DNA of 64,000 nt from Amoebophrya sp. A120. Lineage: Eukaryota; Protista; Dinoflagellata. Below are positions 10,801 through 63,905 of this stretch, piece after piece; the stretch's first letter is position 1; every line of letters begins with the position of its first letter. The notes beneath the pieces were generated by a model that ran no database searches, had not been told where the DNA came from, and saw only the letters and a program-made list of their open reading frames with translations. The position numbers were made by a program, and so were the translations under genes. The stretch is from the NCBI GenBank assembly GCA_905178155.1, contig CAJINV010000003.1, positions 8,662,179 to 8,726,178 of the forward strand, read 5' to 3'.

Positions 10801-13800
10801 TTTAGTACTTCGTGATCATTTGCCGCGCTAACGAGGACCCGAGCACAGCTACTAACTATGCAACCCATAAAGCAGCTCTTGTCCGATTCCGCGTCGCAAA
10901 AAGCTACGTTGTACTTATGTGACGATTTCCAAGCTGCTCTACCATAGGCCCCCATCCTGTTCCACCATCGAGCGCTCCGCGCGTTCCTGGTCCGACGGAA
11001 GCAGGAGAAGTTTGGCAATCCCGCCGAAGGCGGCATGTTTGAAATTCACCCCGAAGTCAACGTGCATGCGCTATCCACGAGAAAAACACCATCATAACCA
11101 ATCTCGTGTAGCATCTCTGGAATGCACTGCAATCCGCGCAAAAGCGCGTCACGCCAGAAACAGTTTCTGAAGAAGTTGCCGAGCTTTCTATTTGTGTCAT
11201 TTTTCTACATTGGCCAAGAGGTAGAGCTTCGTGTACAGGCACATAGAAAAAAGAAATACAAAACTCGAGTTGCGTGGTCGACCCCCGCCAAGCAAGTTGA
11301 AGTTTCTCACTTACGTACCTGAGCGCGCAAATAAAAAAAAGTGTGACTGTGCAGCTGGTGTTTTTTTTGTTCTCCATACTCGCAGCGCAGTAACTAGTAC
11401 CTTACTGCCCAACATCCTTTTCGATTCCGCAGCCGCACCCCCTGAGGTCGACCCCGTCGCCGGGCCCGGTACTGTAGCGACTACGTCCGCCTTCTGATAT
11501 GCCGGAATGGCAAACGCACGGTCGTTCTCCCAAGTACCGCCTGACGCCAGGAACACACTTAGGGCCACTTGGCCCTCCTCGGAACCTACATCGTAGCCCG
11601 CTCGCGACAGAAACTCCGGGACGATCCCGAGTACGCGTCCACTGGGCAGCGCGGGGCCGAGAAACCCGGTGTTCTGCAGGTAGTGCCCGTATGCGAAGCC
11701 AGCTGGAGCCCCACCTGTGGAGTCGTAATACAAGTTGCGACCCACCAACGCACGCAGCTTGCGCCAAGATTCAGCGGGCGTGGTTGCCAGCTGCTGCTTT
11801 CCGGCTCGGATCTTCCGCGTCCACTGCGGGCCCGCCCCTGTCGCGCGCTTGCGTCGAAGCCAGGGTATCAAGAAATCATGCTCCAGCACCTCAACGTCCC
11901 ACAGAAGTAGAAGCATCTCGTCCCGTAGTGCAAACAGGCCGGGTGTGAAGTCCGACATGGCCTCCATCGAGCCCGATTGTCGACTCGGAAGACCTTCCGG
12001 CGATGCTTGATTCTCTCCTGCTTCGCCTCCCACTAAATCCTCCTCCTCGCCGTTGTTTTCCGAAGATGCTGCGCTTGGTTGCTCCTCACTGTCGGACTCG
12101 CTACCAAGTGGTGCGGTCGTCCCGGTGCCCGTGCTCCCACCCGCCGCATCCTCGTTGTCATCGCTTGCACGGTATCAAATGCAAATATGTCTGGGTCTGG
12201 AAGATTCCGAGATTTGTCATGCAGATTTTCCATGATCCATGTCGTCACGTCTGGAATGCAGGGCCTAGCATGACAGATTCTGTGAGATCCCTATCATGCC
12301 TATCCTGCATGAGATGAAACTTCCTCTCAACTTGGTCAAAAGTGGACAGCTTTTGGCATTCATGCAACGGAGATTTTTGCACGATCCAGAGTTCGCATTA
12401 CAAGTTGCAATCTTCCAGACCCAGACATTTTTGCATTTGATACACGGTCGTCAGAGCTTGCTGAGGCCGAGGAGCCCTCCGCAGAAGAGCTCCCACTGGC
12501 GTCGGTACTCGACACGGGGGACGCCGGGGAATCCTCGGTGTCGGGAGTGCCTCCTTTTTGCTGCGAGGAGGAGGGCCGACGGTCCGCGCCGACATCAGCG
12601 GCGGGGATCTCATTGTATTCCAAAAACGCAGAACCGCCTGCGGCAGCGTCCCCTGCTCCGTCCTCTTCGCCTTTGTTCTCTACGTCCGTGTCGCCTGACT
12701 CGCTTGCAGACCCACCTTGCTCTTCATCACCTTCGTCAGAAGCGTTGTTCGATGCGCTCGACGCATATTCCCTGAAAATTAACCATCCGCATCCACTTTT
12801 TGCATAACAAACACACTTACACTTTTTACTACATGTTTTGCATAACAAATTGGATGGGGATGGTTACTTAATTTTCAGGGAATAACGCACCATTGGCCTC
12901 AGATTCTTCTTCGGGCTCGGGTTCCTCGGGCCCGACTGCGGCACCGGCGATGGCCGAGGCTCCCCGGCCCGGCTGGAAAGAAGAAACTCGGTCCACGTAG
13001 CCCTGGTTTTCACGCAGGCTGAAGGAAGTCGCCAGGTCGTTCACGAGCAAGATTCCGTCACGCAACATTTGAACGGGTCGGTGCTCCTCAAGCCACTGCA
13101 GCCACACGTGCTCCCGCTCGCTCCGTTGCAGCAGACGGAGAAGCATTAGCTGCGCACTACCAATGGCGGGCTCCACCCGCTGCTCGATGGTCCGGGCAAC
13201 ACCGGCCTCGTCAAGCGAGAGGGAATCAGCTCCACCTTCATCTGCAATCAAGCTCACGCTGAGACCCAACAAAGAGGAAGGATTTTCTTCGCCCACTTGT
13301 TCTTCCCTTGTGGCACCGGTGCTTTCTTCTTGTGAGCGAAGATCAGGCTTCGTTCGCTCTTCTTCAGATGTCCTTTGTAGTTCGGCCAAGTCCCGCACTC
13401 GTACACTCGAGGCTGCAGCTGCAGAGGGGCCTGCCGCAGAATCTAAAGACATGTCTTCCGCGACCACAACAGGAGAATTCTCGTTCTTCTCTGCTGCCGA
13501 GGCGCCGGATGGGCCAGGCTGCTCCAAGAACGAAGACGACGTGGTCATCAGGAAAGGTGCAGGCCCTGTTGATGTGTCGGTGGGTCTGTGATCCTCAGTC
13601 TCAACATTTTCAGATGCAACTACCGAGGAGGGTGGCAGGGAGCGACGACCACGACTGTGACGCTGATGTTCATCCGTTGCTGCTTCATCGGGGGCATCTT
13701 GCGATGCCGCTGATGCTTTTAAAGCAGGTAGCTGCCCGTGCGGCGCGGTCGCTCTCTGCTCCATTGGGGTTGCAGCTTCGTTCGTATTAGCCTCCCTGTT

Positions 13801-26070: not shown

Positions 26071-29000
26071 TCATGCAAAACCTAACCCCCCGAATAGACC
26101 ACTGCGCTTTTCCTTAGGGTTAGCAGCACGGTGTTGAGATCGGTCGCTTCCTCCCCTAGACAGGGCACCAGGGGCCCCCGCTTGCCGGTGTCGAAGATCG
26201 TACATTGCAAACTGGAGGTCGGACTTCAATTCTTGCAGAATGAACTCGCGATTTGCGCGGCTGTACCGCCCCACCTTGTAGCCCTTCCGAAACCTTCGGC
26301 ACAGAAAGAAGACCAACAAGTAGCGCGCAGGAACGAACAGGGAGAGCACCAACAAAAGTGCGAGCACTGCGGTCACGATGCGGGCAACGTCCTCGCATCC
26401 GCCCCCGCAGTCGGGCGAGAGCAAGTTTGCACGACGCTCGAGGTAATCCGCCCAATACAAAAACTTCCGCTCGTGTTTGTTGAAACGCAACAGATTTCGG
26501 TCCCAGAATTCCCGGACAAAGTTTCTGTTCCCGGATTTTTCAGTTTTTATAGCACCGGGAGGACTCTCCCCCGGACGATGGTGGCGCCTGGAGCTACTGC
26601 TTGCTGTTGGGATCATTTGAATGTGACTCGTTTCAGTCATAATTGTTCGCGTAGCGCTCCCGCTGCGTGCCCTGCTCTCTCGCGTCTTGGAGGCGCCGTC
26701 ATTGTCAAGGCCTGAAGCTGCATGAGTGACGCAGGAGCTGTTTTCTTTCTGTTTATTGGCATTTATGCTTTGGTCGGCCGAGCGGACATCAACAAGGTCT
26801 TCATGGTTATCAATCAGTTTACTTCGTCCACCGCCGCTCATCAGTACAACTGCTGCAGCATCATCCGGGACCAGAGGCGGTGTACCGGGATCGCTCCCGG
26901 CGCGCTGGTCGTTGACGAAGTATTTTTTCTTTTGCACGCTCCCGTCGCGCTGGTCGCTGACGAAGTATTTTTTTTTATTCTCCACCTGCGATCCGTCATT
27001 GCTTCCGTGTCGCGCAACACAGTCTTCGTGCACTTCGGGCAGCGCGTAGGTGCCACTACCTGGGGAGCCCCCACCAGCGTATCTGTGCCCCGCCTCATTT
27101 TGTGGATGCCGCTGTCGCTCCTGATCCTGTGCAGGACTGTGACTGTCACTAACATGATTCCAGGAGCAGGATGAAGGGCCCTGCATCGTTCGTGAGTGTC
27201 GTGGTGCCATGTAGTTGTAGCTCGACGGCATCGATTCTTGGTCCACCCTCACCTTGCAGTGATGATCGATTACAGCCCGAACGTCGTCTGGCGTTCCCTT
27301 GTTCCGGCCGTCACTGTCGGGATCTCCGTCTCCTGCGCACCCTGCCGCATCACAAATGTTCCCCGTGATCGCGCTTTGTGTCGAACTCTGTTGATGCCTC
27401 GCTGCGCCGTCCTGCTCTCGCTTGGCGGGCTTGCTTGGATTCGCCTCTCTTCTGTTTCTGTCACCTCCCTGACTAGAACAGTTCGGACTCCGAGTCGAGC
27501 TTGAACTCTTTGCACTGGTCGTGGGAGAGAGTTTTCCGTCGCGGCCAGCACACGTGCTCGGATGATCGAATACATATTTTTGCTCTTCACCGGACGCATT
27601 TTTGGAACGACCGCCAAGTAGTACCGTTGCACATTCACCTACAGCCATGGCAAAATTGGCGCGCCTCGGCCTAGTCGTAGTACCCCCCGTCGACGAAAGC
27701 AAGAGCGTGCGTGGTGCTGGTACTTCGTTAGAAGTAGAACGGACGCTGCTGTTAACGCCGCGGGGACAGAGGGAGCTTACTTCTATTTCTTCTGCCTCTT
27801 CATCTTCGCCGATGCTGGTGCATTTATTCGTGCACAACTCTGCTTCGTCTTCGCTTTCGCGGCAACTATGGGGTGAATCCGTAGGTATGATGCCCGTGCT
27901 GGTCGTCGTCCTGCAGCTCCCCGGTGGGCAATGCAAACCTGAGTTTGCAGCTGCAGACGAGACGTCGTTGTCCGTGTAATTGTGCCCTGCTGCCGCGGAC
28001 GAGCATGCATCATTGTCCTGGTCGTCCTCTGAGGGTGGAACCGACGGCAACCGTGACGGTGACCTCGCTGTTGACATTGTCTGACCGTCATTCCTCCGCG
28101 GACCCGGAGGTGGCTTGTTCCCGGCGACGTTTATTCGGTAATCATCTAAGCTAAAACTGGCATCGTGCCTTGTTTGCCTTTCGTCCTCACGGTGGTGCGC
28201 ATCTTTGTGGTCTTCGCAAAATGTTTTACTCTGGGTGCTGGCGGTAGAAAAACTATATTGCGCATCAGATGATGACGAGACTTTTATCAGCGACTCAACA
28301 TCATGATGAAGATTATAATCTTTATCTCCATCATCGTCCTCGAGCACTAGTACTTGGTCCTCCCTGTCCTCCCCCTCGCCGCTACGCATTGCAGTATGAG
28401 CAAATGTTCGTACGCAAGTATCAACTGAGGTGGACGTGGTGGCAGCACCAGCGGTTGCTGTTCTTGTCTCAGCGCTCCACCTTGGAGACGATGCGGTCCT
28501 GTTGACGAGAGACGGATCAGCTACTTTCACCCGGGCACAGTCGCCTTTGGTCGCATTTATCTTTGCAGCTGCAAGAAGTGTAGAGGCGGGCTGTAGGCGT
28601 CGTATCTCGGCAACAGCTAACTTGGTTTTCGTGTTCCGATCCCGCCCAGTGAGGCAGCTAGTAGTACAGAAACCCCGAGACATATGGAAGCGCCAGGCTC
28701 GAAATTGACTCTAAAGCGGCGTCATTCTTTATTGCGTTTGCTCCAAACAGCATGACATCGAAGAGCTACGGGCTGAATGTCCCGCGAGCGCTTCTTGGGC
28801 CTAAAAACGTAAACGCGTGTTATATATGTTATGCAAGACGACCCTCCTCGCGATCTGGTGTGTGCACCAGAAAAGCAAGGCGCATCAGCCCACTTCTGGT
28901 GGGACGTGCAGCTGCAGGCTAAAAACAGAAGTGCGAAAAAAATTACCTATTTACTTCGAAGCAACAACATGTGGACAAATGTGGTTTATGCACAGCTTCC

Positions 29001-32000
29001 TAAATTTGACATGCGCCGCATAGAAAATGGGGATCCAACAACTAGTGCCGATGTTATTTCTATTTCAATTCGTGGTTTGCAAATCGCTATCGCTCTCTCA
29101 ACTTTGTTAATTTCGAGCCTGGCATTCCCATACGGCAAGACAGGACTCTGCCGATCGGCGGTCGTGGACGCCAGGTCGGAAACCGGCGACACTTTCATCG
29201 ACGGATATGTAGCGCAAATATGTCTGGATCTGGATTTGTCGATGCAAGATTTGAAGCGCAAGGAGATCTGTGACGAATGGAGAGAAGTGGCGAAGTTTTT
29301 TGTCGTGCTGAAAGGCACCAGTTTTTTTATCATGCGCACAACTATATTTACCGAATGAATCTGGAAGAATCGTCGTAAATAAACTTCGCCTGCTGGTGCA
29401 GCGTTTATGCCATGCAATCTTCTGGATCTGGTGCTCTGTCTCTGCAATCATGCGAGTACCAGCAACACAAATTTCCAGACCCAGACACATCTGCACTCGA
29501 TAACGGAGGACCGCGAACATTTTCGCTGACAATCTCTGCATCTGCTCTCTCGGATGCGCTGCGTGAAAAGGCGCGAGCATTATAAAAATCCTCATAATCG
29601 TCCCCATCGCCATTTCGCCGCTCGCCTGCGGGAGTGTTCCGAACTTTATCATCCCTAATGGTTTTTGCAGCTGCTTCGCGATCTTCCGCTCCTCGGATGG
29701 TCGTCTTCTTAGTATGATCTTCCGGCGGACGAGTGGTCATAGCATGATCCCCCACAACCAGGGACAAGAATGACCGGCGCTGCGGCATCTGATCACCTTG
29801 CTCGTGCAACAGCCGCGGCGATTTATTACGAGCGGAGTGCTGTGGCTGTACGGAACAAGAAGAGCGGCCTGGCTCTTGCGTATCTACTTCGTGCTCTTCG
29901 TCATCGCAAGACGCTGACCGAGAGCTGTCGGTCTGCTCTGTTGCAGATCTTCTACGTCTTGGAGATGTACCCCAGCTCAGGTATGCCAGCGCGTCGCCGG
30001 CGTGTGGCGAAGTGGATTCGCTACCGGAGTAGAACCCTTCCACGGGGAGCCCTACATGCCGCCGCTCACGAAAAAGCGAACGGTAAGTGGTATCACCTGC
30101 TCAGCTGTCACAATCTCAAGCGTTACTACACAACTGAAAAGCGGCGACGCCAAAAGCGCATGTCGTAGCTACCTAAGCCTACTCTGATCGGAATACGCAT
30201 GACAAGTTCCGGAGCCCCCAAGGAAGCCCCACTAGAATCTGGCAAAGCCCGATTCTATATCTATTGAAATTGATGCGATATCACTTGAGATTATAACAAC
30301 TGAGCAAGCCATAAGTGGCTTTGTTCGTGAGCAAGGAGGATGATCCGATCAAGGATCGACTGTAACTCCATCCGTTGTCATCGGTTACTGGGGAAACTTA
30401 TGCGATTTTCAAGCGGTGCACGTGCATTGCTTGCCTTCAGGACGTGAATCGTCTTCATGCAGAGGAGCGGCCACTAGCTATCACCCCCCCAGACGATAAA
30501 GCTACCTCGCGCGACATGATGCTCGTGAAGGGCTATTAAATAGCATGGAAGTATTAATCCGTTCCTGTTCCAAATTGAAAATTGTAGCGCAAGATGAAGC
30601 GCAACAAGAATAAACGGAAAAAAAAATGTTTCAATTTGCATACTCTTAGTCTTACTCTTATTCCTGCGTCACAAATAATAAATTCATGTATGCACCAGCT
30701 ATTGTCTTTGTAACGCTTGAGAACTGCATAGAACTCGAACCTCCCACCGGTAAGCACAGCCGTTTTCCATCGCCCGTGGAGGTGCACAAGGTGCGCCAGT
30801 CGCGGCATCTCGCCACGGTGGAGGGTCACTGAAAACGAGGCGAGCCGCAGAAAAACCTCCCCAAAACCAACATCTCTGGGATTCGATTTTCTCCAGGCGG
30901 CCTGCTTCCCCCATGGCTTTACGGACGTGGCCTCGGTACTGCGGTAGAGGATGTTGACCTGAGCGAGGCTGTGGCGCGTTTGTGCTGGATGAGTAAGACC
31001 AAGACGCCGGCGTCCGCGATTGCTTCGACGTCTTGATCTTGTTTTTCGTGTAGCGTAAAACCTTTCGCGTTCTGTTTTGGAAGCCTGTATTGGACTCCTG
31101 TGACCTTGCTCCTGCTCCGGTCGTTTCGTCTGCCATGGACGCCAGCACATGCGGGCATTCGGGAGGAGGAAAAGAGCGATCCCAAAAAAGAGAAGAGGAA
31201 CAAATTTGTTCTTGCCCAACTGCTACTGATGAGGCAATGGAGTGTGACGTCCTCTGCTCCCGCCCTGCTCTCTTATCATGACCTGGTGAAGTAGGAGAAC
31301 TTTGATCGCCGACGTGGCGTCCAGCGCCGAGCGCCAGGTTAGCACCCCCGTCGCTGCCGCGCTTGTTGTCGGAATGGGGGACTTGGGCTTGACCCCACTG
31401 TGTGCCTTGCTCCGCCAACGCCGTGCCTACGCGGGTGGTCCTCGACCTGCCCAGCCCATGCTGGCGCTCAAGCTCCGGGTCCGCAGCGTCTTCAAATGCG
31501 ACAGCTCCAGTCGGGCGGAAAGTCGTGGTTTGGACGAGGGGAGGTGAATAATGTCTGGAGCTGGACGATGAGCAAAATAAATCTGCGCCAGAATAATCTG
31601 TGGGCGAAAGTTGCCGGCTTCGAGCATCACATGCTCGCTGGTCCCGATTGGACAGCAAGGGGGCTTGCTGTGAAGGTGCGCCATCACAACCAGGAGTCTG
31701 CCCCTGCACCGAGTAAGTTTGAGTTCGCGCCGCCTGCACCTGCTTCTGGAGTTCAGCATCATCGTCGGCGAAGCGTTGCGCGGTAGGTGCTGCAAAGCCA
31801 CCCCCTATGTCGACCGTCGTCGAAAGCAGCGTTCTACGCGCACTAGAGCAGCTTGTGGATATCATTCTACAACTTGAACTTGATGGCGTTTTGGTTTTCA
31901 TTCGCTGCTCATAATTTTGTTCCCGCTGGTCCTCAAGGTCAAGGACTTCGGCGAATAGCTGCTGTGCCCCGTTTAACAGCGCAAGTTCAATGCGCTGCTC

Positions 32001-34847: not shown

Positions 34848-35824
34848 CCAAGCAACGTATCACTTAGGAAAACCACTCGCCCGCCCTACTCCCCTTTTCC
34901 TAAAACTGATCTGTGAGTCTCCTCTAACATGCCAAAGGACATACAAGAACCCTACAAGTAGAACATGGGTTGCGACGGCGGGTCTCTAGATTGTGACTGG
35001 TGTCGATGAAATTCGAACTCCGTCAACGCGCTCTCTTCTTCGGATACCGCTTGGGAAGAGATACTGGAGAGCGAGAAGTCACTGCTCACTGCAAAGGATA
35101 CAACGCGAGCCTCTTTCTCAAGTGCGCAAACCGTCCATGACCCGCGCTCGCTGCTGTATTCTGAGGCGCTGATCTATCCAGCACCAAAGAAGACCCATGT
35201 CAATCCGCTTTGTCATGCATACCCGACTGCACCACATCAAAAACCTTTGCACCGTCGCCGCAAGCAGCTTCGGACGCAGGAGATCTAGGGTCAGAACCGC
35301 GAAAAACATCGCGAGTGTATGATGTCATGCAGAGTCTGATGTGTCCGTCACTGACACTGTCATGCAAATAAAAGTGAATCAATGGGCATGGGTCAACATA
35401 ATTTTCTGCGGATATGATCGCACACGGTCCGCCAGTGCGCATCTCTTCGGAAACAAAAAATATTCGAAGTTGAAACTGCTGCTCCCCGGTCTTCAAACGG
35501 ATTTCCCCGTCGTCTCGCAGATCTGCGCCACTCAGATCCATGATCCGTTCGATGCTGGCATCGTCTATGCTTTCGGTTTCGCCAAGTCGGCTCGATGTAC
35601 GAAAATGAAAACAAGAAGACGTCCAAGTCGGACCAATTTTGTTAATCTTTGTTAAATAGTTTGGAGGGTAAAAGCATGGGAAAAAGCTATCAAGGTCAGC
35701 TAGGTTCTGCCAACGTACTGTGTGTAAATGGGGCAATAGGGACGCGAGTGTACGTCCTTGTTCCTCCTCCAGCGCCACATACTAAGTACTTTTGATTTTA
35801 TGTGCTGTCTCATGGTCGTCGTAA

Positions 35825-43785: not shown

Positions 43786-46725
43786 TCACTCACTTGGATC
43801 CGCACTCCATACAATAGTTGCAGGCGCGTGCGCGAGCTTTTGTTCGGTGTCTGATGCTGCTGCCTGATCTCGTCCTTGGAACGTCGTGCGGTGGGATTCA
43901 TCATTTTGTGGTAGCAACGTACTCACTGGCGCGTTGCCTGTGCCTTTATCCTTGTCCGCGCGGTCGTGTTCTTGTTGCGGTTCTTGGTGTTTTTGTTTTA
44001 CGCCTACTTGTTCCAGCACCGGAGGTGACGTCGAAGACAAGTTTTCGTCTTGTTTGTTACCGTGGTCGTTTGGAGCAGCTTGACCGGTTACCGCTGCCGC
44101 CTCTGTGTCCAGCAGCTTGAGCATTTGTTTCGCGAGCGCTGCACGCTCGGCGGCTGGGACATGCTGCCAGTTCGCGGGGTCGAGCAAATTCGCAAATGCC
44201 GTCGTGACATTGTGGTGCGCCGGCTGGTCTGCGGTTGCCTTGTCGCCCGTGCGCGCCAGCCAAGACGGCAGCACAATTTGCCACAGCGCCGCGCGTCCCT
44301 GCTTCTGCACCTCGTCCCGCCGGAGCGTATCGGACAATGTTTGCACGACCTGATCCTTCAGCTGCTCGTCCGCGAGCAAGCCATGCAGTGCCTGCCTCCC
44401 CAAACGGGTGACCCGGTCTACGGCCTCCTCTGTAGTGACTATCTCGTACAGGCTTTTCCCGGTATATGAGAGTGCACAACTCCAGACCCACCACAACTCC
44501 TCTTCCAACTTATACTCATTTGTCATGCAAAAGCATCAAAATCAAAAACTCTATTTTGATGACACGTAGTGAGTAAGACCTGCCTCGCGTGTGTTCAAGT
44601 GGTGGCTGCGAAAACTGAAACTGCATTGTGGCTTGTACTGCTCGTGCTTTCTTTCAACCAACAAGCCGATGCCCTTCATCAAACGAGCGGGCAGGCGGGG
44701 AGCGCAAGAAGAAGTGGCGCGCAAGAACGACTTCTCATCTACAACTCATACGGTATTCTGCTTCACGCCCTCCTCTTGCACCACCTGCTGCACCAGCGAC
44801 GAAACCTGCTGCAGCACCTCCTCCCGCTGCAGAACCTGCACCACCAGCACGCCCAGGGTTTGCTTCACGGCCTCCTGTTCTACGAGCAGCTGGATCCACT
44901 GCACGCCGAGCTCCGTCAGTTTTGCAAGCACCAACGGCTCCTGGAGCAGGTCTGCCACGCGACCCGCGAGCGGGGCTTGGAAATGCTGTAAGATTTCCAG
45001 AAGCCACAGGCCCACCTGCTGCTGGACAACCGGATCACGAAACAGCTGCAGCAGCACATCTTTCGAGAAGAGTGCCGTATCAAATGTAAAAATGTCTGGG
45101 TCTGGAAGATTGCCAGGTTTGTCATGCACATTTTCCATGACCACTGATGTCTGTGATGCATGCCGTAGCATCACAGATTTTTGGAGCGCTTCCTCATGCC
45201 TATTCCGCATGACAAATGCCACTTCCGCGGAGCACAAAATATACTCCTCTTACTGGTCACGCAATACAGATTTTTTTAGAGTCCAGCGTTAGCATCACAA
45301 GTTGCATTCTTCCAGACCCAGACACTTTTACATTTGATATGCCGTGCTGTCCTTCAATTCCGGGTTCTGGACCACTTGATGGACCACCTTGTTGGTGTTG
45401 TCGGAGACCGTATCAAGTACCCAATGCCACCGCAGATACATCACGCGTCGTATCACAGTTAAGAAAGATGATCATCAAAGCCCAACCCACATGAACTACC
45501 GACCTGTACAAAACAGAGGAACAAAGATTTTTCCGGAGCAACAAGATCGGCCTCTTCATAAATGTGTAGCTGTCTTCTATAATTTTCGTGCCAGGAGGAC
45601 ATCAATGAAATGAAGGGAACAAAAAGCGCAGGCACGAGTAGAAGTCGTGCGTAGAAGCAGCGACACGCGTCGCCTGCTCAGTTGATGTATACAGGATGCA
45701 AAAATTGTCTGCAAAGAAGGCAACTACGGGGAGCGAGGTGTCACTGAGTCGTGCACCATCTTCTTGCAAACAGTAACAAGTTAGCTTATAATATGCTCTC
45801 TGGGCCCCCGCCACTTCTTGTGCACTCGCTGATGCAGCATGACCAGTGAGAAGCGTCTCTGGTCGCGTCGGCCTTGCATTGCGGGGAAGAGATGAACTTT
45901 GTTCTGCACGATATTTCCGGCTACCGCTAGAACCCCGACCACTGCTGCCAGCGCAACCCGCGGCAACGTCCGGGCGCGCGCATGAAGGTCACTCAATTGC
46001 TCCTGCATCCGCTCGTACGAGGAATGCTCTGCTGCAGTCCCAGTGGAGCTCGTGGCACCGCCCGCGTAGCTGCTGCCGCGTCCAGAGGAAGTAGTCGTCG
46101 CGCTGGACGATGAGGGCGCGGGATGTGTTGCACCGTCCACGCCACGGGCTATGTGGTCCACCACCGGTGTCGTGCCCTCAGTGCCTTTTCGAGTGCGCTC
46201 GTCATCTTGATCTTCGCTCCTCCCATTTTCACCATTGCCACTGTAACCGTAAGCGCTGCCTGTACTGTAAGCCTGGCGGGAAATGTGATTTCCAAAGAAT
46301 GTGTCTGGGCGAACTAACAAGTTACACTGATGCTCAGCAGCGAAAAAAGGAAAATGGTCGGCGAAGCCCCTAATAGGCCTACTTTGCGCTGCTCGAAGTC
46401 CGTCGAAGCTACTTTGCTGCCCTCTCTTCTTCAGAAGTAAACATGGAAGGGGTAGAGGGCATGATCCGACGAAGAAATTCAAAGTATCTATTTTTGCGTG
46501 CGACCAATGTAGCATTGAGCTTTTCGACACGTTGTCAGAAACAGTGTTCGAGATGAGCTTTCTCGCCGAGTTTAAAACCGGAAAACCGGTGCGGCCCTGA
46601 GGATTGCAACCGTCCCTCACGGGCCCTCGTCCTGTTTCACTGAAAACCAATTGACCGCATGACCCATATCGTCGACGGAGTCTCCTGCTCGTTGTCAATA
46701 ACTGAAGTTGCCTGATCATGACCAT
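43786..46725 (-). CDS. 4-exon single-TM protein with helical L/Q/V-rich repeats and a possible mitochondrial presequence
   Basis: In-frame joins AGN/VMYLRWHW, DSTA/LFSKD and QNT/GKSLYE; Arg-rich, acid-poor N-terminus MVMIRQLQLLTTSRRLRRRY. Confidence 0.7.
44465..44750. mobile_element. Introner, perfect DR CGGTA
   Basis: tatgag ends; left end tatgagagtgcacaa shared with 54597; frame restored. Confidence 0.85.
45078..45339. mobile_element. Introner, TCTGGGTCTGG family, perfect DR TGCCG
   Basis: TIR tatcaaatgtaaaa.tgtctgggtctggaaga; close sister of 12173-12442; frame restored. Confidence 0.93.
45451..45913. mobile_element. Degenerate introner
   Basis: Only TATC...GATA ends remain; removing element plus 5 nt completes a TM helix in frame. 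Confidence 0.5.
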
Positions 46726-48305: not shown

Positions 48306-50831
48306 CTACAGCTTCGCGACCAACTATGGAAGCGTCAGGTTTGTTGAAATCGTCAAAGTTGAAATAATTTGTCATGCATAAAATGCAATACAAAAAGTGA
48401 CTCTATTGCAGAGGACCCAAGGGAGGCAGATTATAGTCCTGGCAAGGGTCAAGAGTTGGGCTGCTATCTAGCATGACAGAAGGCAGCTCTTTTGCCCTAA
48501 ACCGCATGACAGACTCGCTTCCAGGACCGGGAAAATTTGCCATGCACCGACTACAAACTATAGGCGTAACTGGTATCCGTTTTATGCATGGCAAACTATT
48601 TCAACTTTGACGATTTCAATCCTGACAGTTCCATACCAACTTATTCGTATGAGTCGCGTGCAGAACATCCACGGCTTCCGTGCAAATTCGTTGGACCAGT
48701 TCCTTGCAGGTGGGGACGTCGTCGATGAGGCCAATGCTCTGCCCACAGCTCCAAACGCTGTCGTCGGCGTTCCCGGTCTCCTGGAAGGAAATGCGGTACT
48801 TGGCCCCCTTCACAAGGTCTGCGATCGCGGCGAAGTTTCCGGGGTCCTTCCGTTCCCGAGCACGTACCTCCTCCGCGCACGCATTCTTGTACACTCGCTC
48901 GGTATTCGAGAGCGTCGTAAAGACCAGAGTCGTATCGTACTCGTTTGCCGCGCACAGTGCTTGCTTGATCCCGTCCTTAATGGGCGCCTCCTTTGTCGCC
49001 ATCCACCTGGTTCCCATATTCATTCCCTCGCATCCGAGGGCCAACGCGGCCGCCAGCTGCCGTCCGTCTGCACACGCGCCAGAGGCGATATAAGGAATGC
49101 GCAATTTCTTCGCCGCCTTTGCAAACAAAACCCAGTTGGTTACGTCGTTTTCTCCTGGATGGCCCCCACACTCGTAACCATCCATACTAATCATATCGGC
49201 TTAATTATGGAAATTAGAATTACAAAACACCATCCATACTTCTAGGGCAATTATTGCGAAGTAGTAGATAGGCATAGGGACGAACTACAGATGAAGGCAC
49301 GATCTTCATGTGTCATGTGTGTCCTAGGTGTCGGCACCGGCACCACCGCTGCTACGTATCATTATAATTGCACTTTATTTACATTACATATCTCATTTTT
49401 ATGTTTACGAAGCCGGTGATGTTGAGTGACCTACGTCACGAAACGTTCATGAATTTCTGTAATTGTATCTTTTTAGTGTGCATTAAACTTCTAGCTCCAT
49501 GCCAACACGCATACAGGCTCGGGGAAGGAGAGCCACTCCTACAATTTAGATCTGTTTGCCACGACGACGGCTTTTTCTGCTTATGTTGATGATTACTAGC
49601 GCCGACACCTGAATCCCTCCTGCGATCATCGGCTTTATGAGTAGCTTTTGGTGTAAGAAGTTGTATGCAATTCATAGCCCATGCGCGCCGCCGTCTCGGC
49701 ATGCTTGATGGCAACGCACTTGTGTATGACCACGCAGCCGTGTTTTTTGAACAACTTGATAAATTTTTCGGGGTTCCGACCCGCGGTCTCAATGATCTTG
49801 ATTCCCTCGTCGAGCACTACCTGCGCGTATTCGTCGTAATTGGGAGGCGTCAGCATGGGAAGCAGCGTCAGGTTTACCGCAAGAGGCTTTTTCGTCAGGC
49901 CTTTCGCCTTTCGTATTTCCTGCCGTAATGCCTCCGGGTTCGGCGGTATGGAAACGCCAGGATGAAAATCGACAAAATGAAAATGGAAATGCATTTGGCT
50001 AACGTGCCAGAACTTAAAAGCCTGCGTTTGGCCAAAACGAGCAAACGATTGGAAAGATGAAGATCTCTACGAAACTTCTCAACTTTATTATTGCATACAA
50101 AAGAGAAGACGGTAGAAGGGTTTCGGGTTTGGGGTCTCGGGTTTTTTTCAAATCGACAGCAGTGCATTGGGCACGCAATTTCTACGCGGCGCGTGACACA
50201 TCTTCCGGATCTCTCGGCCAACTTTATAGTCGCGCAGTTTGGAGCAAGGCAGTACGAAGTGCGGCGACGCTCCGGTTATTGGCAATCAACAGCCGCACCT
50301 TTCTTGTCGGTGGCTCCAATCAGGGCTACAATCTGCTTACTTTGCAAGACAGCTTCACTTCTATGTAGTCTCGTTTCTGTTTCATACTATACAAACTACT
50401 CATTTTCGTTTTGAGAATGCCGAACTTCTCACAAGTCCCATACGTTGTGTCAAAGCGGTAATGGTACCCAGTCCTCCGGCCTCGGATACTGCTGCCGCCA
50501 ACTCGGCATAACCGACGTAATGCATTCCGCCTGTATGGAAGTGTCTGTGTCAGGTGGGAGACCATAATAATTTGCAAAATGTAAATGCGTAAAATACACG
50601 ACGCGATGAAATTGAATGCACGTCTTCTTGCACCAGAGAAATACAAATAGTGGCCCGACGAGACCCAGATTGTTCAGAATTTCTTTTGCTTTTCAATCGA
50701 CTTTACAATTACATTTGTGATTTTAAGATTTCCCACCTGAGATTCACATCCCCATAGCCTTGCATCAGGGGATACTCGACTCCCATGAGCTCTGTAAATC
50801 TTGTCTTCAGTTTCATGCCGACCGTCGCCAT
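48306..50831 (-). CDS. Nitronate monooxygenase / 2-nitropropane dioxygenase family flavoprotein, 5 exons, C-terminal AKL
   Basis: KTRFTELMGVEYPLMQG/GMHYVGYAELAAAVSEAGGLGTITALTQ/PNPEALRQEI..KPLAVNLTLLP..IIETAG..HKCVAIKHA..MG/ADMISMDGYECGGHPG..IPYIASG..MGTRW..WSCGQSIGLIDDVPT..NKL/VAKL*. Confidence 0.93.
48325..48635. mobile_element. Introner, TATGG-GTCAGG family, perfect DR CCAAC
   Basis: About 60-bp TIR tatggaa..gtcagg..ttgaaatcgtcaaagttgaaa..tttg.catgcataaa. Confidence 0.93.
49206..49676. mobile_element. Degenerate introner, NMO intron 3
   Basis: TATG...CATA ends; removing element plus 5 nt gives MG/ADMIS. Confidence 0.65.
49947..50442. mobile_element. Introner, NMO intron 2, no AG acceptor
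   Basis: TATGG...CCATA ends; left end has the family TIR; restores conserved TQP-x-PE. Confidence 0.85.
50534..50756. mobile_element. Introner, DR GCCTG/GCCTT (GC-AG compatible)
   Basis: TIR tatgg...tcaggtggga; restores QGGM. Confidence 0.9.
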
Positions 50832-53234
50832 TCTACCGCTTGCTATTATGAAAGAAATTAAAAAAGAAACGAAAAAAAAAACTCTTAGGCTCGACCAGCG
50901 CGGGCCGTGTCGGTGAAACCAATACTAGCCGAGAATCAAGGAAATCTCGCTACAGCAGGTGGCTGATGTTTCTCCTCTAGCGGCAGGCTGCACGCAGCAA
51001 AACCAGCTAACACTAACTAGCTGCCCAAAGTCTGATGTTGGTCCGTGTAGCCCAGCGGCTCACGGGTGGGAAAGCAAACTCCAACTCTCTTTCTGCCGTC
51101 TGAGTCTGTATCAGTATCTTCAGTTTCGCAATTATGGTCTCAACACCCTCTCTACTCCTTCGTTTTTTCTCTTGCTTTCAAAGTGTGTCTCTATGTGAGC
51201 GACTGCCTCTGTCCTGATGATCTCCGTAATCGCTTCCACCTTCTTCAAGAAGAACTTCAACTTTTTCATCTAGACACAGCAATAAAGCTCCTCTTCGAAG
51301 AAGTACACAAATAGATACTCACCAACGGCAGGCACTGTTGACGAGCATGAGATAGTGTTAGTGATAGAGAGCTAGTCTGCCGCACTAGTGAGTTTCAGCC
51401 GACAAGAAAGTCTCGCACTTTATTCCCCAGATACACAGGAAGTGGGTGCGTGACGCAAGATGCGAGTTCCGACGACATTCACATGATAGCCCTGGCCTTG
51501 GGCGCCTTCTACTACCATCATTATATTTCAAGATGATACATAGACTGGCAATGCACAGCCGCTAGCTGAGAACATGTCTGATTAGATGAAGTAGATTGAG
51601 GACCACGACAAGCACGAACATGGAGACCACGGTCTGAGATGCATTTTATGTGCTTGGTGGAATCACCAGTAGAATTGGGATTGGATGTAGACTAGACCCC
51701 ACGCCCTTGCGTCTGCTTCAACTTTCGCGTCTGATTGATGTGCATGTCGCTTTCATCATCCTCTCTTCGGCTTCGGGGACGACTGCCAGTGTCGTGACAG
51801 CATTAGACAAAAATCACAAAACTAATCCTGACGGATTACGACTACTTCAATGTTGCGTTGGACTTGCACTTGGATGAAGAGAGTTGCAAGCTCCAGCTGC
51901 TCTTGGAGTCGGTCGCGTCGTAGTACATGCGGACAGGGTCATGTTGGACCGACCGCCGGCTGGTAAAAGTGAACTTGGGCAGTAAAAACTATCGGACGAT
52001 CTCTTGCTCCTACTTACAGTGAGTCACTAGCTTCTTCAATATGGAATTGTAATGTATATGTACAAAAGGATAACATCAAAAATGGTGAAGTGAAAAGTTG
52101 TAAAGTTACAAAAAATCATCTGGAGTATGACGGAGAATCTATGTGATTCCACATCAAGAACTTCGCCAACAGAAACGGAAACGTGCACAAACAATGGAAA
52201 CGCGAGCCCTTTTTCTCGTGCTGGCTCCGGTAAAAAAAATCATGAAAATTGTCGTAGTGTAACTAAAGCTAAACCTATGGAAAAACTGATATGCTAGACA
52301 TTGATCCTGCAATTGTGATTTCTAGTGCTTCTAATGAGAACATGTCAAACTCAAATAGAATGATAAAGCTGTAGCTCCTGAAGGATTCGCATGCCCTAGT
52401 AAACTGATCACGTTGCTATCTGCAGCTCATACATGAGATACAGCTGCCAATTTGGCAAGAGGTTCCAGCAATATGATGAAGAACGATAATGAAGCCTCAA
52501 CATGCATGCTTATCGCTACATACTCAAACTCATACAACAACAAAAGAAAAAATTAATGCATCGCTTGCGCCAGTTAACAGATGAAGCGCTTTTTTTGTTG
52601 TCTCCTCCGCTTCAAGGCGCGCCGGACACCCTAGCGGGGCTGCAAGTAGATCCGTGGGCGGAGCCAGTGCATCGTACGAAAAAAGTGCTTCTGTGTAACG
52701 ATTAAGCAAGGCAGCTTTCGGTTTGCATCACAAGCGTAAGTTCGTTCCATGACCAAAAATAAAAGAACAGTTCTCACGCGTGATTCCATGCAAGAAAGGG
52801 AAACACGTTTCATCAAAACCGCTGTCCTACATCATCTGATCTACTGGCGTGACTAACTCTAACACTGCTGCACTGCATCCTCGCCAGCATGAAAATTTCA
52901 TTACGGTGAACTGCTTTTTTCATGCGATACAGTGATCTTGTTGTCGAACTGCCCAGGTATCGTAGTTGAAGTTCGCTCCTTGTGGCGCTGTCAGGCGTTA
53001 CATTGATTGCTATCGCACGAAGATTTTGTGACGCAAGACTAGCAACAAAAGCAAAAAGGGACGACAGCTTCGCATGCGCATCTGGCATTAAGTAGCATCA
53101 CCATCAGAGGTTCTTTGGCAGTTGGCGCGTTGAGGACCTGTCACGCGAAGCCAATTAATCGCGTCTCGGGACGAGGGAACAAGGGATGATAGATAGACAT
53201 AGATGAGTAGTGCTTCTGCATGACAAATCACGTA

Positions 53235-56200
53235 TTAAAACAGCACTGAATGTAACGCTTGAGAACGCCATAGCACTGGAAAGCTGCTCCTTCTCGAAAG
53301 CTTCTTCGCATCCTTGCGCAAGTCCTCTTGGCGGGCTGGATCTTCCTCGTCGTTCGCCTCAATCCGCTTTTCCAGGGCCACCTTAGCCCACCGTTCGATC
53401 GGATGGTCATCCCGCAGGTAGTTGAGTAGATCAGTTCGCGCGAAGCCGTCGCTATCCATCGTGTTGATAAACTTGTCCGCGTCGACGCGCGCACGAAGGA
53501 CGCCGCGTGGTCCAGCGGACATGTCTACCTCCTGCGGAAAGAAGAAGCGGTCGCCTTGGACATACGCCAGCGCGTCCGGGAAGGTGGCAACGAGCCGAAA
53601 CGCCGGTAGCAGGAACATCCAAAGGTTGTACCACCAAGTTGTCTGCCCCGTGGCCGCGAGTTTCGTGTGCACGCCCCGCTCGTCGTACGGGTTCTCGCGC
53701 CAGGCCCGCATCTGAAAGAGCTCTTGGTCGAAGCTCTGCCGCATCGAGTATCCAGGAAAAAAACTGTGTAAGTGACTCTGTAATGCAGAACATGCGACAG
53801 AGTTACGTCTGTCATGCCAGAAAGCCACGAGGTCTCTTTTCATTATGTGTGCCATGCATGACAGGTTTTCTCTGTCATGTAGAGCAAACTTCTGATGCTG
53901 TAGGACAAAGAAAGTTACACTAACACAGTTTTTTTCTTGGATATCGAGAACGAAAACTGCACCGCCGTCGCGGCGAAGTGGTACTTTGTCCGGAAGCTGC
54001 AGCGCGAACCAGGGGTAGGAACCCCTTCCAGCTGCAAGCGATTCGCCACGTACCCCGTGTCCTCTTCGGTCAAGGTTCGATTCACGTACGCCGCGTGCTA
54101 TGGCAAGAACGCCTCTGGAACCACTCAAAAGCACCAAACAAATCTGTAAACCTGCTTCCGAATGATCTATAGTAGTGCAGCACATGTGAAGCAGCTCGCA
54201 CTGTTTTTAATTCTATGATAAAAAGGGGCCAACTACACAACATGCAAATGAGGCGCGTCTTCACACTCGCAAGCGAGCCTTTTCCTTCGGAGTGTCTGTG
54301 CCAGGAGATGATCTCCTGGCGCAGACACGCATCTGTAGTCTTGCATGTGACACACATCTCGGTATGTGTCGGGACATGCAAGAAAGACACGCTTCAAATC
54401 AAACTACACGCAAATGTTGTATTACTGGACCACGCGTCGATGGCTGTTGATAAATAAAAATATGCTCATTTTCATCGTCTTCAACAGATTTGTTTCATTT
54501 TGAAAAGTTCCCTTCCTCGCTCTGCATACCTCGAGTTCGTGGCTGACCAGCGCGGCGAAGAGGTTCTGCGGAGGGCATGCCTGGAACCAAGACAGGTATG
54601 AGAGTGCACAAGTCCTCGCTCTCTGAGGGCTGGACGTCGTGCATTTGCATTTTAATAGGAGCCGAAGGCCACTTATGCTCGTGCCTGATCTGTAAAAATA
54701 TAATCGGGTGCCATTATTTCTAACAGTAACTACAAGTCGCGCTTCTGCTTCCGCGGCCCCTCAGGAAGCTGCTCTATCATGCTGGTGCTTTAAAGTCGTG
54801 CTCTGTAGCTTTTTTTTTCTGGCACGGCCGGAGCGTGCTCGCGTAGAAAGAATGGCACTGATGATATTGATGTTGAAAGAACAAAGACCTCCTGGCCCAG
54901 TACGTCGTGCTTTCTAGTTCTACTTATTCAATGAACATTCATTATGAAAAGAGAGGACGAACCGCTGTGCAAGCCGATAAGAGAGGGTGCCGCTTCACGC
55001 TGGCCGGCGCCCGGAACTCAATCCGCGTGTCGCCCGGCTCCGTAAACACAGTGCAGAGAGATTTTCCCGATGCTTGCGCCGGCAGCAACGGCTCGGTGGT
55101 CGCGTTGGTGGCCCCCGCAGCGCCCCCCAAATCCTCCTGCAGGAAAAGTTGCGACGACACGAGACCACCCCGGCTCAGGGTAGCAGGAAGGTTTTCTGCG
55201 GTGTTGCCCGCAACAGTCATCGAGAGGGACTCCAAATTCGCGGGGGCCAGGTTCGGAACGACCATCGAGAAGTCTTGTCGCCAGATGGCCTCGAGGTCCA
55301 CAAAAATTCCTCCGTAGCGCTCGACGACCGCGAAACGGACACGCTCCTTGACGCGGGGCGCACGCTGCTTCGCGACGGCCGCCGGAACGGAGCCGGCGGG
55401 CGTCGAGGGGGCGCGCCACACGCTGTACTCTGACGGGTCCAGCAAAGCCGGCAAGCGGGTGGGATCCAACACGTTCACCTTCCAGCCCTCATCTTCCGGG
55501 TGCAAGTACTGGAGCTTCCGGATACTCGCGACCTGCAACGGGTTCGGCGGAAGGTGCTCCACGTACACCCAGATTTTCCGGGGCACCCAATTCATGTGCT
55601 GATGCACCCACTGCAGCCACGCTGCGGTGAGCGCCTGGTACCTGGGGCTCGCGGCCGAGTCGGAATACTGCGCAATCCACCCTGGCGCTAACGGGGAAGC
55701 AGACGCGCTTTCTCTTGTTGCGATTTTGGTTTGCCCGTGTTCCTGCTGTTGCTGCGTGAAGGAAGCAGCCCACGTTGACGCAGAAGTCCAAACCGCGGCG
55801 CCAGGCTCGGTCGTCTCTTGAGGCTGCAAATCCGCGGACGTCGTGCTGAGTGACTTATGGTGGCGAAGTGGGTGACTTTACAGAATGCTGCTAGCCACAA
55901 GAAACATCGCAGTCTGCCCTGAGAATTTTCTACATTTGGTTTATACTGATCTTTGTGTTTTGCCATGCGAAAATGAACACGTCAAGTACCACTGATTCAA
56001 CTTCATGGGTCGCCCGGGGTGATTAGATTGATCAGATAATTAAACAGTTTCACTGTGCCCCTTCCTTGCATCACAAAAAAAGCTGTATAGGAGAATTATC
56101 CGCGCGACAAGTATATTACTTTTTTCCTACCCACGGCTACCAGCAGTCGGGAAGGTCACTGGCTTGCTCTCGATACTGGTGAGAAGGCTCAACCAGATCA

Positions 56201-60002: not shown

Positions 60003-63000
60003 TCAATTCGTCGTAGCGAGGTGCGTTGCGCCGAACTCCTCTCCCTTGCGCACCTGTGCTTTCAGGTCTGGTAACATTGCATCAAGGAGTTGCTTCTCCC
60101 TGTCGGGTGGCATGCATGAGAAAAACCTCCACCTCGAAAATAATACATATATGCCCATCATCATGCGGCGCAGCTGGAAATTCAAGTTCAAATTCCTGGA
60201 TTCGGACTCGGATGCGCGGTCGCCTCTTACCTGGTACATCTTGCCTGCACGACCTGCAGATAAAACACGAATAGAGCCGCGGCCAGAGGCATTAGATGAC
60301 CAAGTAGAAAAAGAAATACATCGTAACAGGCACCAGAGGGACCAGCACTAGCAGTGTACTACACGTTTAAATACAACACGAAATAATATGATTCGCGTCT
60401 GTTGATGGTAGGCACGTCTACAAAGTAGCAGCCGCTCTGGCTGTAAGAGCATATGCAGCGCTGGACGCTGTCGTTCCTCCTGTGGTCTGTATCTATCGTC
60501 CCCAGCTGCGCGAGCGCCACAGATATGGACACTATGGTGGCTCGAGGTTCTGGAGGTGTCTCTTCAGTTGATAGACATGGTGCACGTATGTATCTCCGCG
60601 ATTCCCATCGTGTTCAGAGTCACTGGAGAGGCAAAAAAGCCGCAGCCTGAGTAAATCTCGGAATCCACAAATGCGCAAGCCTTCTGCGTGTGTGGGCCCT
60701 TGAGTGCAGCTGCGACTTTCGCAGTGAACGCGGCACCGGCGTGTGCCAGTGTATGGAAGTGTCAGGCGGCAAAAAATCGAGGAGAAAGAAGTTCAAGTTG
60801 TAAACTACAATGCAGAAAATTTTACGGCCACGATAAGCAAGTAACACGACACCCACTGATGATTACAGCGCTATCGCTAAGGTATGAGTATCTATACTAG
60901 AGAGCTCTGGATCGTCCAGGTCATCCATAAAAACCTGTCGCTTCACAAAGAAAAAAGAGAAAAATGGCGGCTGCGCGTCGGCCAACTGATTGCAACGGCG
61001 CATGTAAAATTCATTCTCCAATCGACAACAGATTGATTCGCGCCTTTCTTCAGAAGCCACAAGTCTGTCTGTCAACCATAAAGCAGTTCGGAGACCCCAC
61101 AGTGCGAGGCTTATTCTTATTGAGTATCGATCGTATTATTATTTGCAGCTGCCTCGGGGGCCCGCCGCGGCCGCGCTGTCTTGCGCGTCGCGTCGCAAAG
61201 CAAAAAATGACGCCAACATGTAAAGAGCAAAGAATCCTGCTCGCAAAGAATAAGAAAAAGAAGTGTTATGATGCTATATTTATAATTTGTCATCGTCGCT
61301 AACGCTATCTCATCTGTACTTGATGCCCTTGCACCATGAGGTTGAAATGCACACTGACAAGAACGATATCTTCGCACCTGGCACTTCCATACATCGACAG
61401 TGTTGCGGATCCAGCGCCGTCCTTGGCTTTCACAACCTGTATTTTTTTTTACCATTCACGACTCATGAGGGCGAGTTGTAAAGTCAAACCAGGCTTAATA
61501 TGCACAAGCTTCGAAGTGGGTAGGAGCGCGCAAAAAAAGCGTAAAAAAATTGGAAGTCAGACGTTTTCGTTTCCATGCCCCTGCCGTTTTTCGACGTTCT
61601 ACTGATGCGCATCCACCACAATCGACATTGAACATTTGCGCGGACTCTTGGAAAGGTCGCGATCCAAGTTCATTTTGAAACAGAAAGAAAAACAAAAAAC
61701 GGAACCACTCACCGTTCCGACATAGGTAAAAAACTATTAATCAACAAAATTCAATGTCAATTCTGTAGTACTAAACAAAAATAACCATGCGTGTTGTCAT
61801 GCAAAGCTGCATGCCTGAGCCTGCAACCTTGAGCTTAGCAAGGGGGAGAAAGGTACGTTGTTACCCAGGATATACGGAAAAACGTTCTAAGTACCTCATC
61901 GCCCCCGAACTGAATTCTTTTGGTGAGCGCGTCCAGCTCCGCATCCGGAATGCCATATCGATCTGAAAGTCTATTACTTTGAAAAAAAAGTGCCCCTGCC
62001 TCGCTCCCAGAAGTGCGAAAGGCTAGTAATGCGCAGTTTCCTAGATGACCTTTTGTCTACTTCTTGCACCAGAGACCTAGGACCAATTTTTTTGCTCCGG
62101 ATTTTAGGCTTGCAGGGCACGACCACAAGCACGACCTCTTAAGTGAATGGCAAGTCGAAAAAATGTTGCTGGGACTTTGTAAAGCGCAGCACATGCACAT
62201 CTTTGTTACTCTGGATTGCAAATTTGTCTTTGTGCTGCTGGTATGTCCAAAATGTGGAGTGTTTCAACTGAAAAATTTTCATCTGGCATCGCAAGCACTT
62301 CCGCTTTCTTGCGTTGAGGTAGGCGCACTTTTCGACATGATAAAACACTCCTCAACAGCACTAAGCAGGTCATAGTCATAAAGTGTGCAGAAGCACGTGC
62401 AGCTTGTTGCAGGAGAGAGCTTACTACATCAAAATCAACTGTAGGTGTCGCCGTAGACGTAGTGCTTGTGGTCCTTGTTTTCTGTAGAGTTGCGGCAGGT
62501 TAATGTAGTGGCAAGACTCGCACGTTGTTGTCATGTCAGGAAAAGTCAAAGCGTCGCGCTCGCGCCATGCATACATGTACTATGCCGACCTTTTTACCTA
62601 GAAAAGAAAAGACAAAGAGTAGATGCATTGTAGCGTCCGTCTCTAATCGCGAACGCGGCGACCATGAACAAATGACGGCGGGCATTTTTTTCCTGTGGCA
62701 GCGAAAAGCGTCGTGGTCGAAAGTGTTTTCATCACCATAGGCCAGAAACATGACTCAGCAGCGGAAGAATCGTGGTTCCCGCGTGCCCTCCGATGACCGG
62801 CACGTCACACGAATTCACGTCGACTTTCAGTTTCTCTGCGACGAAAGTGTTGGCCCGAGTGACATCCAGAGTTGTCACGCCGAAAAGTCGCCGCTTATCG
62901 TAACAGCCTGTGATGTTGTAGTTGCAGCATATTTCAATATGCTCTGCGGAGGACCAAGATGAACAGGATAACTTTATACGAAAAATCGAAGCAATGCCAC

Positions 63001-63905
63001 GAGTGTGGGCTTTCAATCAACGTCCTGTGGTGTATCGTCTATCGTGCGGCTTTCTGATTTACAAGCAGGCTGCTAAAGTTCATAGATGACAATCATACGC
63101 AGGCACCGATCTTAGAAACAAATGCAACACTACGCCGAGCATCGATTCTGAGAAGTACGAAAAATCTTGGAACCTGCGCTAGCGCTAGCGTCGCGCTTTA
63201 TAAATATCACTGCTGTACTAGTTGCCTATTCTTCCAACTTTCACTTTTTGTATTCGGCGAAGGCAGCGACTTATTTATGAAACAGTGAAGGAGTCGTGCA
63301 AAAATTCAGAAATTATCAAATGATATAAGGCTTACGACGTACCGTGTTTCGCAAGAACCGCTTTCCAGATCGGCACCATGGAGTTCACGGGATTTGAGAT
63401 GACACAGAACATTGCGCTCGGACAGTTTTTTGCGCAGGCGGTGGCAATATATCGCGGAAAAAAAATAAAGCGTAGCAAAAATACAAACAAAATGGTGAAG
63501 AAGATCATGCGTGGCAAAGGCAAACGCATATGAATGCCTTGCCCCCGACATGATTACATAAGACAACCACAATAAATGCTACGCGCTAGTTTTTTTTCAT
63601 TCTGATACGAGATCCGCGTTGATGCCAGCGTTTATCTTGAACAAATCGTCCCGGGTCATTCCGGGCTTCCGCGGTACCCCAGCAGGCACGACCACAACAT
63701 CTGCGCCCCGCAAGGCAGCGTCAAGCTCTCCCTTTTTGTAGCCACCGACAACTTGACATGGAGTGGAAATGTGACTGATATCCACCGCGACTCCTGCTAC
63801 CACCGGCGCCACGTCGTAGAGGCTAAGCTCGTCGATGTTTGGATCCTGCTTCAGCAGCAGAGCTAGCGGCTGCCCGATCCCACCCGCGGCACCGCACACC
63901 ATTGC
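60003..63905 (-). CDS. MDH: NAD-dependent malate dehydrogenase (mitochondrial/glyoxysomal type), at least 7 exons, 5' end outside the window
   Basis: [91 protein letters not shown]../..[36 protein letters not shown]../..[22 protein letters not shown]. Plain GT-AG introns at 62908-63342 and 61437-61894. Confidence 0.96.
60111..60573. mobile_element. Degenerate introner, last MDH intron
   Basis: acctcca..cctcga near both ends; MS/DREKQ in frame. Confidence 0.7.
60752..61391. mobile_element. Introner splitting the MDH SM/AHAG motif, no AG acceptor
   Basis: TIR tatggaagtg(t/c)cagg; flanks CAGTG/CATCG. Confidence 0.92.
61956..62739. mobile_element. Degenerate introner, DR TGCCA/GGCCA
   Basis: Weak TIR; HVSG/(I/L)PDAEL in frame. 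Confidence 0.6.
63450..63607. mobile_element. Degenerate introner in MDH
   Basis: TATC...GATA ends followed by A-tracts; DL/ATACAK in frame. Confidence 0.75.

Follow-up and report, generated by a model that had tools for sequence, protein, structure and literature searches.

The question raised by this locus is what sets the cut sites of an intron once the repeats that flank it have decayed. The window, by which we mean the whole stretch of 64,000 nucleotides analysed here from contig CAJINV010000003.1 of Amoebophrya sp. A120, is eukaryotic; its long open reading frames lie on the minus strand, and short inverted-repeat elements with TAT and ATA at their ends are numerous. A preliminary description, made from the letters alone, singled out eight places at which the two flanks no longer match and the element plus 5 nt still yields an in-frame or conserved protein, and proposed that the acceptor is set by distance from the base of the hairpin rather than by sequence. 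All eight are TAT...ATA elements (the one at 60111 begins CAT), and their direct repeats have decayed, since the 5-nt flanks match at only 0 to 3 of 5 positions (2 at 49947, 0 at 49206, 2 at 10751, 3 at 28683, 1 at 55856, 1 at 60111, 3 at 63450, and 2 at 45451).

We show here that cutting at a fixed distance is real in the junctions examined: 5 nt in total are removed with the element, divided as 1+4. The evidence comes from contigs of two runs, X1 and X3, both likely RNA (a guess), aligned to positions 44201-64000; two runs of raw reads, X9 and X10, placed 7 and 3 reads, respectively, with no junction yield. Fifteen of 24 joints were listed, 13 of the TAT type and two of the GT-AG type, and two junctions deduced from contig breaks bring the TAT-type total to 15. 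The introns concerned are these:

49943..50443, minus strand: non-canonical intron of the nitronate monooxygenase (NMO) gene, 1 nt + element 49947-50442 + 4 nt, ends GT...GC, skip of 501 nt; joint 49942>50444 in X1 with 2 equivalent placements, and homologs
49202..49677, minus strand: intron of the NMO gene, element 49206-49676, direct repeat 0/5, arm identity 4/17, ends CT...TA, skip of 476 nt; contig-break geometry, and 120/120 homologs ungapped at +5
45447..45914, minus strand: intron, element 45451-45913, ends AT...AC, skip of 468 nt; contig-break geometry
55852..56176, minus strand: intron, element 55856-56175, unique placement, ends GT...TC, skip of 325 nt; joint 55851>56177 in X3
60107..60574, minus strand: intron, element 60111-60573, 3' motif ATG for ATA, skip of 468 nt; joint 60105>60574 in X1 and X3
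63446..63608, minus strand: intron of the malate dehydrogenase (MDH) gene, element 63450-63607, skip of 163 nt; joint 63444>63608 in X1 and X3, and PDB register
52977..53273, minus strand: intron, 3' motif ACA (A.C mismatch against 5' TAT), unique placement, absent from the preliminary description; joint 52976>53274 in X3
48321..48636, minus strand: young element 48325-48635 with a perfect 5-bp duplication, skip of 316 nt; joint 48318>48635 in X1
50530..50757, minus strand: element 50534-50756, skip of 228 nt; joint in X1
52666..52930, minus strand: element 52670-52929, 3' motif ATG, skip of 265 nt; joint in X3
53745..53944, minus strand: element 53749-53943, skip of 200 nt; joint in X3
54095..54529, minus strand: element 54099-54528, skip of 435 nt; joint in X3
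54593..54980, minus strand: element 54597-54979, skip of 388 nt; joint in X3
60748..61392, minus strand: element 60752-61391, skip of 645 nt; joint in X1 and X3
61952..62740, minus strand: element 61956-62739, skip of 789 nt; joint in X1 and X3
61437..61894, minus strand: canonical GT-AG intron, starts GTAC, A at -7; joint in X1 and X3
62908..63342, minus strand: canonical GT-AG intron, starts GTAC, A at -7; joint in X1 and X3

Among the joints listed, element plus 5 nt is removed at 15/15 of the TAT-type junctions readable in X1 and X3, and all 15 agree with a single split, in which the cuts lie 1 nt ahead of TAT and 4 nt beyond ATA on the sense strand; alternative splits of the +5 fit just 4 to 9. 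If the split were random and uniform with the total held at +5, the chance of all 15 falling on one split would be about 1e-6, or 7e-6 for any of the six splits. Placement is unique at four junctions, namely the two joints of the 55852 and 52977 introns and the two deduced ones (49206 and 45451). Direct joints cover four of the eight elements first described, contig-break geometry two, and reading frame alone the remaining two; the contig-break skips assume 30-nt overlaps and leave no room for a hidden slide, and the same contig-end logic with a 30-nt overlap reproduces the known joint at 60574. The mismatched repeat at the TQP motif of NMO, where CCG against CGG had been put forward as a way to read the cut, gives CCG at the junction. 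It is possible to suppose that the offsets are loose and that +5 merely survives selection for reading frame, as frame selection favours +2, +5 or +8, the legend to Fig. 3 in the accessible part of PMC7789003 describes splice sites whose position relative to the hairpin varies, and contigs, here with 15 of 24 joints listed, can mask rare variants and minor isoforms. However, exactly +5 and one split in 15/15, four of them uniquely placed, make this account hardly credible, and the offsets relative to the ATA end, whose random variation would have spoken against the original proposal, do not vary among these junctions.

The protein comparisons concern the same register. NMO aligns without a gap across its two junctions at +5 in 93/120 and 120/120 homologs, and at +2 or +8 in 0-2/120; the named eukaryotic homologs are from Perkinsus and Symbiodinium. 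The MDH exons abut at residues 100/101 of PDB 1mld_A. Two further introns are predicted from the reading frame only:

10747..10947, minus strand: predicted intron, element 10751-10946
28679..29133, minus strand: predicted intron, element 28683-29132

Under the 1+4 rule, 10751 falls in an open reading frame of 1929 codons (9670-16500, five predicted elements) and 28683 in one of 2488 codons (26000-34900, four elements). The claim that +5 keeps an in-frame or conserved protein at all eight elements is upheld by homologs for NMO and MDH, but at 10751 and 28683 the frame fits +2 or +8 as well. A Pfam search of 20 window open reading frames found NMO (in two pieces) as the sole named family plus one sub-threshold HrpJ match, and the long exons of 9670-16500 and 26000-34900 that were searched had no Pfam match. 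Element 48325-48635 contains the apparent NMO stop codon (48616), and the protein made after splicing therefore extends to a C-terminus further on. A single X1 contig links the NMO exon, by way of the joint 48318>48635, to position 45915 and reaches into the next open reading frame (45781-46725); over this stretch (45915-49201) it represents a long 3' UTR, read-through or an assembly merge.

Removal at the RNA level is the likely reason that the elements are absent from the assembled reads. The competing account is that they are lost from DNA, by recombination between repeats or programmed excision, or that the joints are template-switch artefacts of reverse transcriptase. The RNA nature of the joint-bearing runs is a guess, and template switching at direct repeats is known (PMC13149111, in the section available). 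Repeat-driven recombination or template switching is nevertheless unlikely, as the preliminary description had already argued, because there is little microhomology (none in 4/15 junctions and 1 nt in 5/15, that is, 0-1 nt in 9/15) and the conserved proteins, NMO and MDH, need the joined form. Moreover, all ten junctions that exclude the mirror split (10/10) share the polarity of transcription, with all genes here on one strand, one contig holds both canonical and TAT-type joints, and two further runs of unrecorded kind contain the unspliced stretch at a word fraction of 0.95-0.96. We therefore regard loss from DNA or an artefact as very improbable.

Several observations accompany the junctions. 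Unspliced X1 contigs lie over 49206 and 45451 at depths of 17 and 9, where the contig of the flanking exon has a depth of 64, and a piece of an X3 contig (44201-44927, depth 11) includes element 44465-44750, with its perfect 5-bp repeat, in unspliced form; the unspliced cover at these three elements reflects retention, pre-mRNA or DNA. Positions 63901-63907 hold the 3' end of a further intron, an ATG variant with its upstream exon outside the window, whose loose-end junction fits 1+4 with a 1-nt slide. An X1 contig has one extra A after 50871 in a homopolymer, possibly an assembly error or an allele.

What the preliminary description overlooked is that +5 is the length of the target-site duplication, split 1+4. 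Scanning metagenome contigs for the motif yielded 77 loci (L001-L077), with one element family in one assembly, and the duplication was counted over 76 elements in these loci, 74 of which passed the arm filter. The flank repeat is perfect at 5 bp in 62/74 and at 4, 6, 7 or 8 bp in none, so the +5 corresponds to one copy of the duplication. We identify the elements as introners that carry inverted repeats and a 5-bp target-site duplication, in agreement with the A120 type published for Amoebophrya: they have TAT arms, a boundary repeat of 3-5 nt with cuts inside both copies, repeated families (window copies share 66-78% identity over whole elements with the metagenome loci), and non-GT-AG removal at 13 direct joints in likely-RNA contigs among the joints listed. 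Arm position 13 is A in 111/115 stranded elements and positions 11-12 are A in about half. The elements, at about 110-790 nt, also have the inverted repeats, constant-length duplication and lack of transposase of a MITE, and they would have been inserted by a DNA transposase, although the available text of PMC7789003 reports no cognate autonomous one in A120. With flanks abcde, the cuts lie as abcd|e-TAT...ATA-abcd|e and the target is restored exactly. Because each copy of the duplication is cut after its fourth base, splicing of a newly inserted element would give back the mRNA as it was before, whatever the target and whichever way the element points.

The metagenome loci are not orthologous to the window, in that 11 window open reading frames and a spacer found no match in the 77 loci; the assembly has the element family of the window in genes other than those found here, and most of its copies are young, with the duplication still perfect. 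Frame scoring of variant elements there, whose splicing is predicted, is a weak test and gave +5 as best in 11/19. Two element families are neighbours at 2351-2892 of the window and again in L002, L070 and L074, with unrelated spacers (59 nt in the window). Elsewhere in the window, 21952-22283 is a tandem repeat with a period of about 62 nt, and a 60-nt duplication is found at 21024/22498.

The bases at the cuts carry no fixed signal. Intron position +1 at the 15 junctions is G in 7, C in 5, A in 2 and T in 1, and an AG acceptor occurs in 0/15 read-supported ends; among 115 strand-called elements drawn from 44 sources, AG stands at 6/115 predicted ends and exon position +1 is a purine (G or A) in 71/115, which gives no purine rule. 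The bases at +1 and -4 to -1 are free. A drift of +1 toward G was ruled out (44/115, against 43 at exon +1), as was an enrichment of AG at intron ends (6/115). The part of the original proposal that stood is thus the fixed distance with free bases at the cut sites. In contrast to these free positions, T+2, A+3, T+4 and A-7 are each present at 15/15 junctions, T-6 at 14 and A-5 at 13. The base at -9 is C in 11 and T in 2 of the 15, an atypical branch context that speaks against A-7 as a branch point.

Variation at the element ends separates these positions further. There are 23 single-base end variants, and all 12 with a confident strand keep T+2, A+3 and A-7, their changes falling at +4, -6 or -5; nine of the 11 weakly stranded ones fit as well and two do not, with about two false elements expected from shuffles. 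The strand of each variant was called by a per-locus score, as a local 120-nt score proved noisy, and at that margin the caller was right on 20/20 window tiles, on the assumption that all window genes are on the minus strand. The invariance of A-7 was observed in the window before the metagenome loci were examined. When the search was relaxed, 4 of the 16 stranded variants did not fit; these four had repeats of 3/5 and arm identity of 10/17 or less, and we took them to be probable internal sub-repeats. A mutation bias of the transcription strand alone seems insufficient, because both A>G and T>C occur yet avoid +2, +3 and -7. From this pattern in the letters we infer that U+2, A+3 and A-7 are probably selected signals.

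The part of the proposal that did not stand is the hairpin base as the anchor. As a mechanism it would resemble that of Euglena, with the arms pairing and the cuts measured from the base of the stem. The arms are indeed strong in young elements (up to 16/17), pairing of TAT with ATA is predicted with high probability in 6 of the 15 introns, ATG variants preserve a U.G pair, and Euglena needs a paired CAG/CTG motif with fixed spacers of 3 nt and 5-6 nt (PMC12501133, in the sections accessible). However, arm identity and direct-repeat identity fall together (rho 0.64, p 0.01), the arms matching at only 4/17 positions at 49206, and the register persists after both the direct and the inverted repeats decay. 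Predicted terminal pairing is about zero in 7/15 introns and intermediate in 2, and in 3/15 the stem extends past TAT/ATA over the +1 base, with the register unchanged; folding of whole introns is unreliable here, as the 52977 intron has an arm identity of 14/17 yet zero predicted pairing. Mismatches in the arms of the 115 stranded elements show no excess of G.U wobble (92 against 100, p=0.61), a comparison whose power is limited by young elements. More tellingly, 7/7 informative end variants of confident strand are oriented so as to break the end-to-end pair and keep U+2, A+3 and A-7, giving an A.C mismatch where the opposite orientation would give G.U (3' ACA in L004, L047, L061, L068 and the read-supported 52981; 5' TAC in L029 and L032). 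Conserved end-to-end pairing of the Euglena type was not found. A conserved adenosine, rather than the base of the hairpin, seems to be the anchor, and we consider a hairpin ruler unlikely.

The reading that we favour, by a slight leaning only, is a spliceosome that has no need of G+1 or AG and for which A-7 is the predicted branch point at a fixed distance. Such a modified spliceosome would read just U+2 and A+3 at the donor plus the conserved A-7, and the 3' cut would fall 6 nt after A-7; distance from the branch A would replace recognition of AG, neither G+1 nor AG would be needed any longer, and the direct repeat could later decay without shifting the cut. The U2 donor and acceptor pattern, GT or GC...AG, is not seen (G+1 in 7/15, AG in 0/15), which makes a standard U2 intron less probable, but not one that works like it. 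An Rfam search of the window gave no match; most spliceosomal proteins and U2, U4 and U6, with no U1 snRNA, are reported for Amoebophrya in the available part of PMC7789003. In the yeast P complex, by the portion at hand of its study (10.1101/212811), the pairs formed at the intron ends are G-1:G+1, A-2:branch A and U+2:U6 A51, and on these pairings a joint loss of G+1 and AG with U+2 retained would be structurally coherent if branch distance replaces AG recognition. Fixed short distances from branch to intron end are described in accessible excerpts for Yarrowia, Giardia and Trichomonas (PMC2483917) and Entamoeba invadens (10.1101/2022.06.08.495308), and in Candida guilliermondii a fixed 3-nt spacer, by the partial account available, places the branch A at -7. 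Both canonical introns of the window (n=2) begin GTAC with A-7, which lends weak support to the A-7 model, the chance of A-7 in both being about 6%.

It is also conceivable that no spliceosome takes part, and that a protein reads both terminal motifs on the RNA, cuts at fixed offsets and leaves a ligase to join the exons without a lariat. Neither AG nor G+1 is required, the branch context is atypical, U1 snRNA went undetected as far as PMC7789003 was accessible, and Euglena introns are reported to exit as circles, not lariats, in the available part of a review (PMC11282704). However, U+2, A+3 and an upstream A are the bases that a spliceosome uses, and they are common to both canonical introns, so that we assign this alternative a low probability. 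If the spliceosome lacking a need for G+1 and AG is indeed at work, a minimal code, |N-U-A ... A-N6|, might serve canonical and transposon introns alike, a tentative idea that falls a little short of an even chance. If true, any TAT-ended element with a 5-bp duplication would make a perfect intron wherever and whichever way round it inserted, and an invasion by tens of thousands of introns would be accounted for; in strain A25, with its TTA ends and TT-NN boundaries, the code would be shared but read in another register.

Introners are already known; the fixed register with its A-7 rule appears new, as no fixed register or A-7 rule for these introns was found in the literature covered, which left subscription journals largely outside, and the figures of PMC7789003, a source available in part, may show some of the register. 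The published account leaves splicing open and the boundaries variable, and a fixed 1+4 with three constrained bases turns this into a precise prediction, a lariat joining +1 to A-7. With the 1+4 rule, gene models of these parasites could be corrected systematically, and the rule would show how a transposon stays invisible to coding sequence without target preference.

In the sections available to us, Farhat et al. (2021; PMC7789003) describe Amoebophrya A120 introners with an inverted repeat starting TAT, direct repeats of 3-5 nt at the boundaries and non-canonical ends, whose splice positions are variable relative to the hairpin and have no clear signature; the legend to Fig. S23 places the A120 repeats 1-5 nt from the splice sites. 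The present elements share with them the TAT-start inverted repeat, A-rich positions 11-13, boundary direct repeats, non-GT-AG ends and co-oriented genes, but differ from that text in the 5-bp duplication, the fixed 1+4 and the constraint on U+2, A+3 and A-7. In Table S4 of the same source, the nine top A120 motifs are all NT-NN and the nine A25 motifs all TT-NN, so that T holds the second place in each of the 18 non-canonical motifs found most often, across two strains whose repeats differ. The nonconventional introns of Euglena (Nomura et al., 2025; PMC12501133, as far as available) likewise lack GT-AG and have inverted repeats and short terminal motifs at fixed unequal distances. However, they have CDG/CHG with spacers of 3 and 5-6 nt and a purine at the exon start, here the spacers are 1 and 4 with no purine rule, the signature 5'-N3CDG...CHGN5-6|R is not matched in motif or spacers, and the end variants argue against pairing. 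The spliceosomal introns of Yarrowia, Giardia, Trichomonas and Entamoeba invadens resemble ours in a conserved A fixed a few bases from the 3' end; by the accessible text they keep GT, AG and a full branch motif, whereas our introns lack G+1, AG and such a motif, and their branching is a prediction. The introners of Micromonas, Aureococcus, Symbiodinium and Florenciella (PMC9860276, in part) are derived from DNA transposons, are cut inside the duplication and restore the mRNA, and those of Fritillaria borealis likewise have target-site duplications and a restored mRNA (PMC11282704, in part). Those introners carry or co-opt boundary dinucleotides (GY/AG, or AG-AC/AT), whereas in the present elements the bases at both cuts are free.
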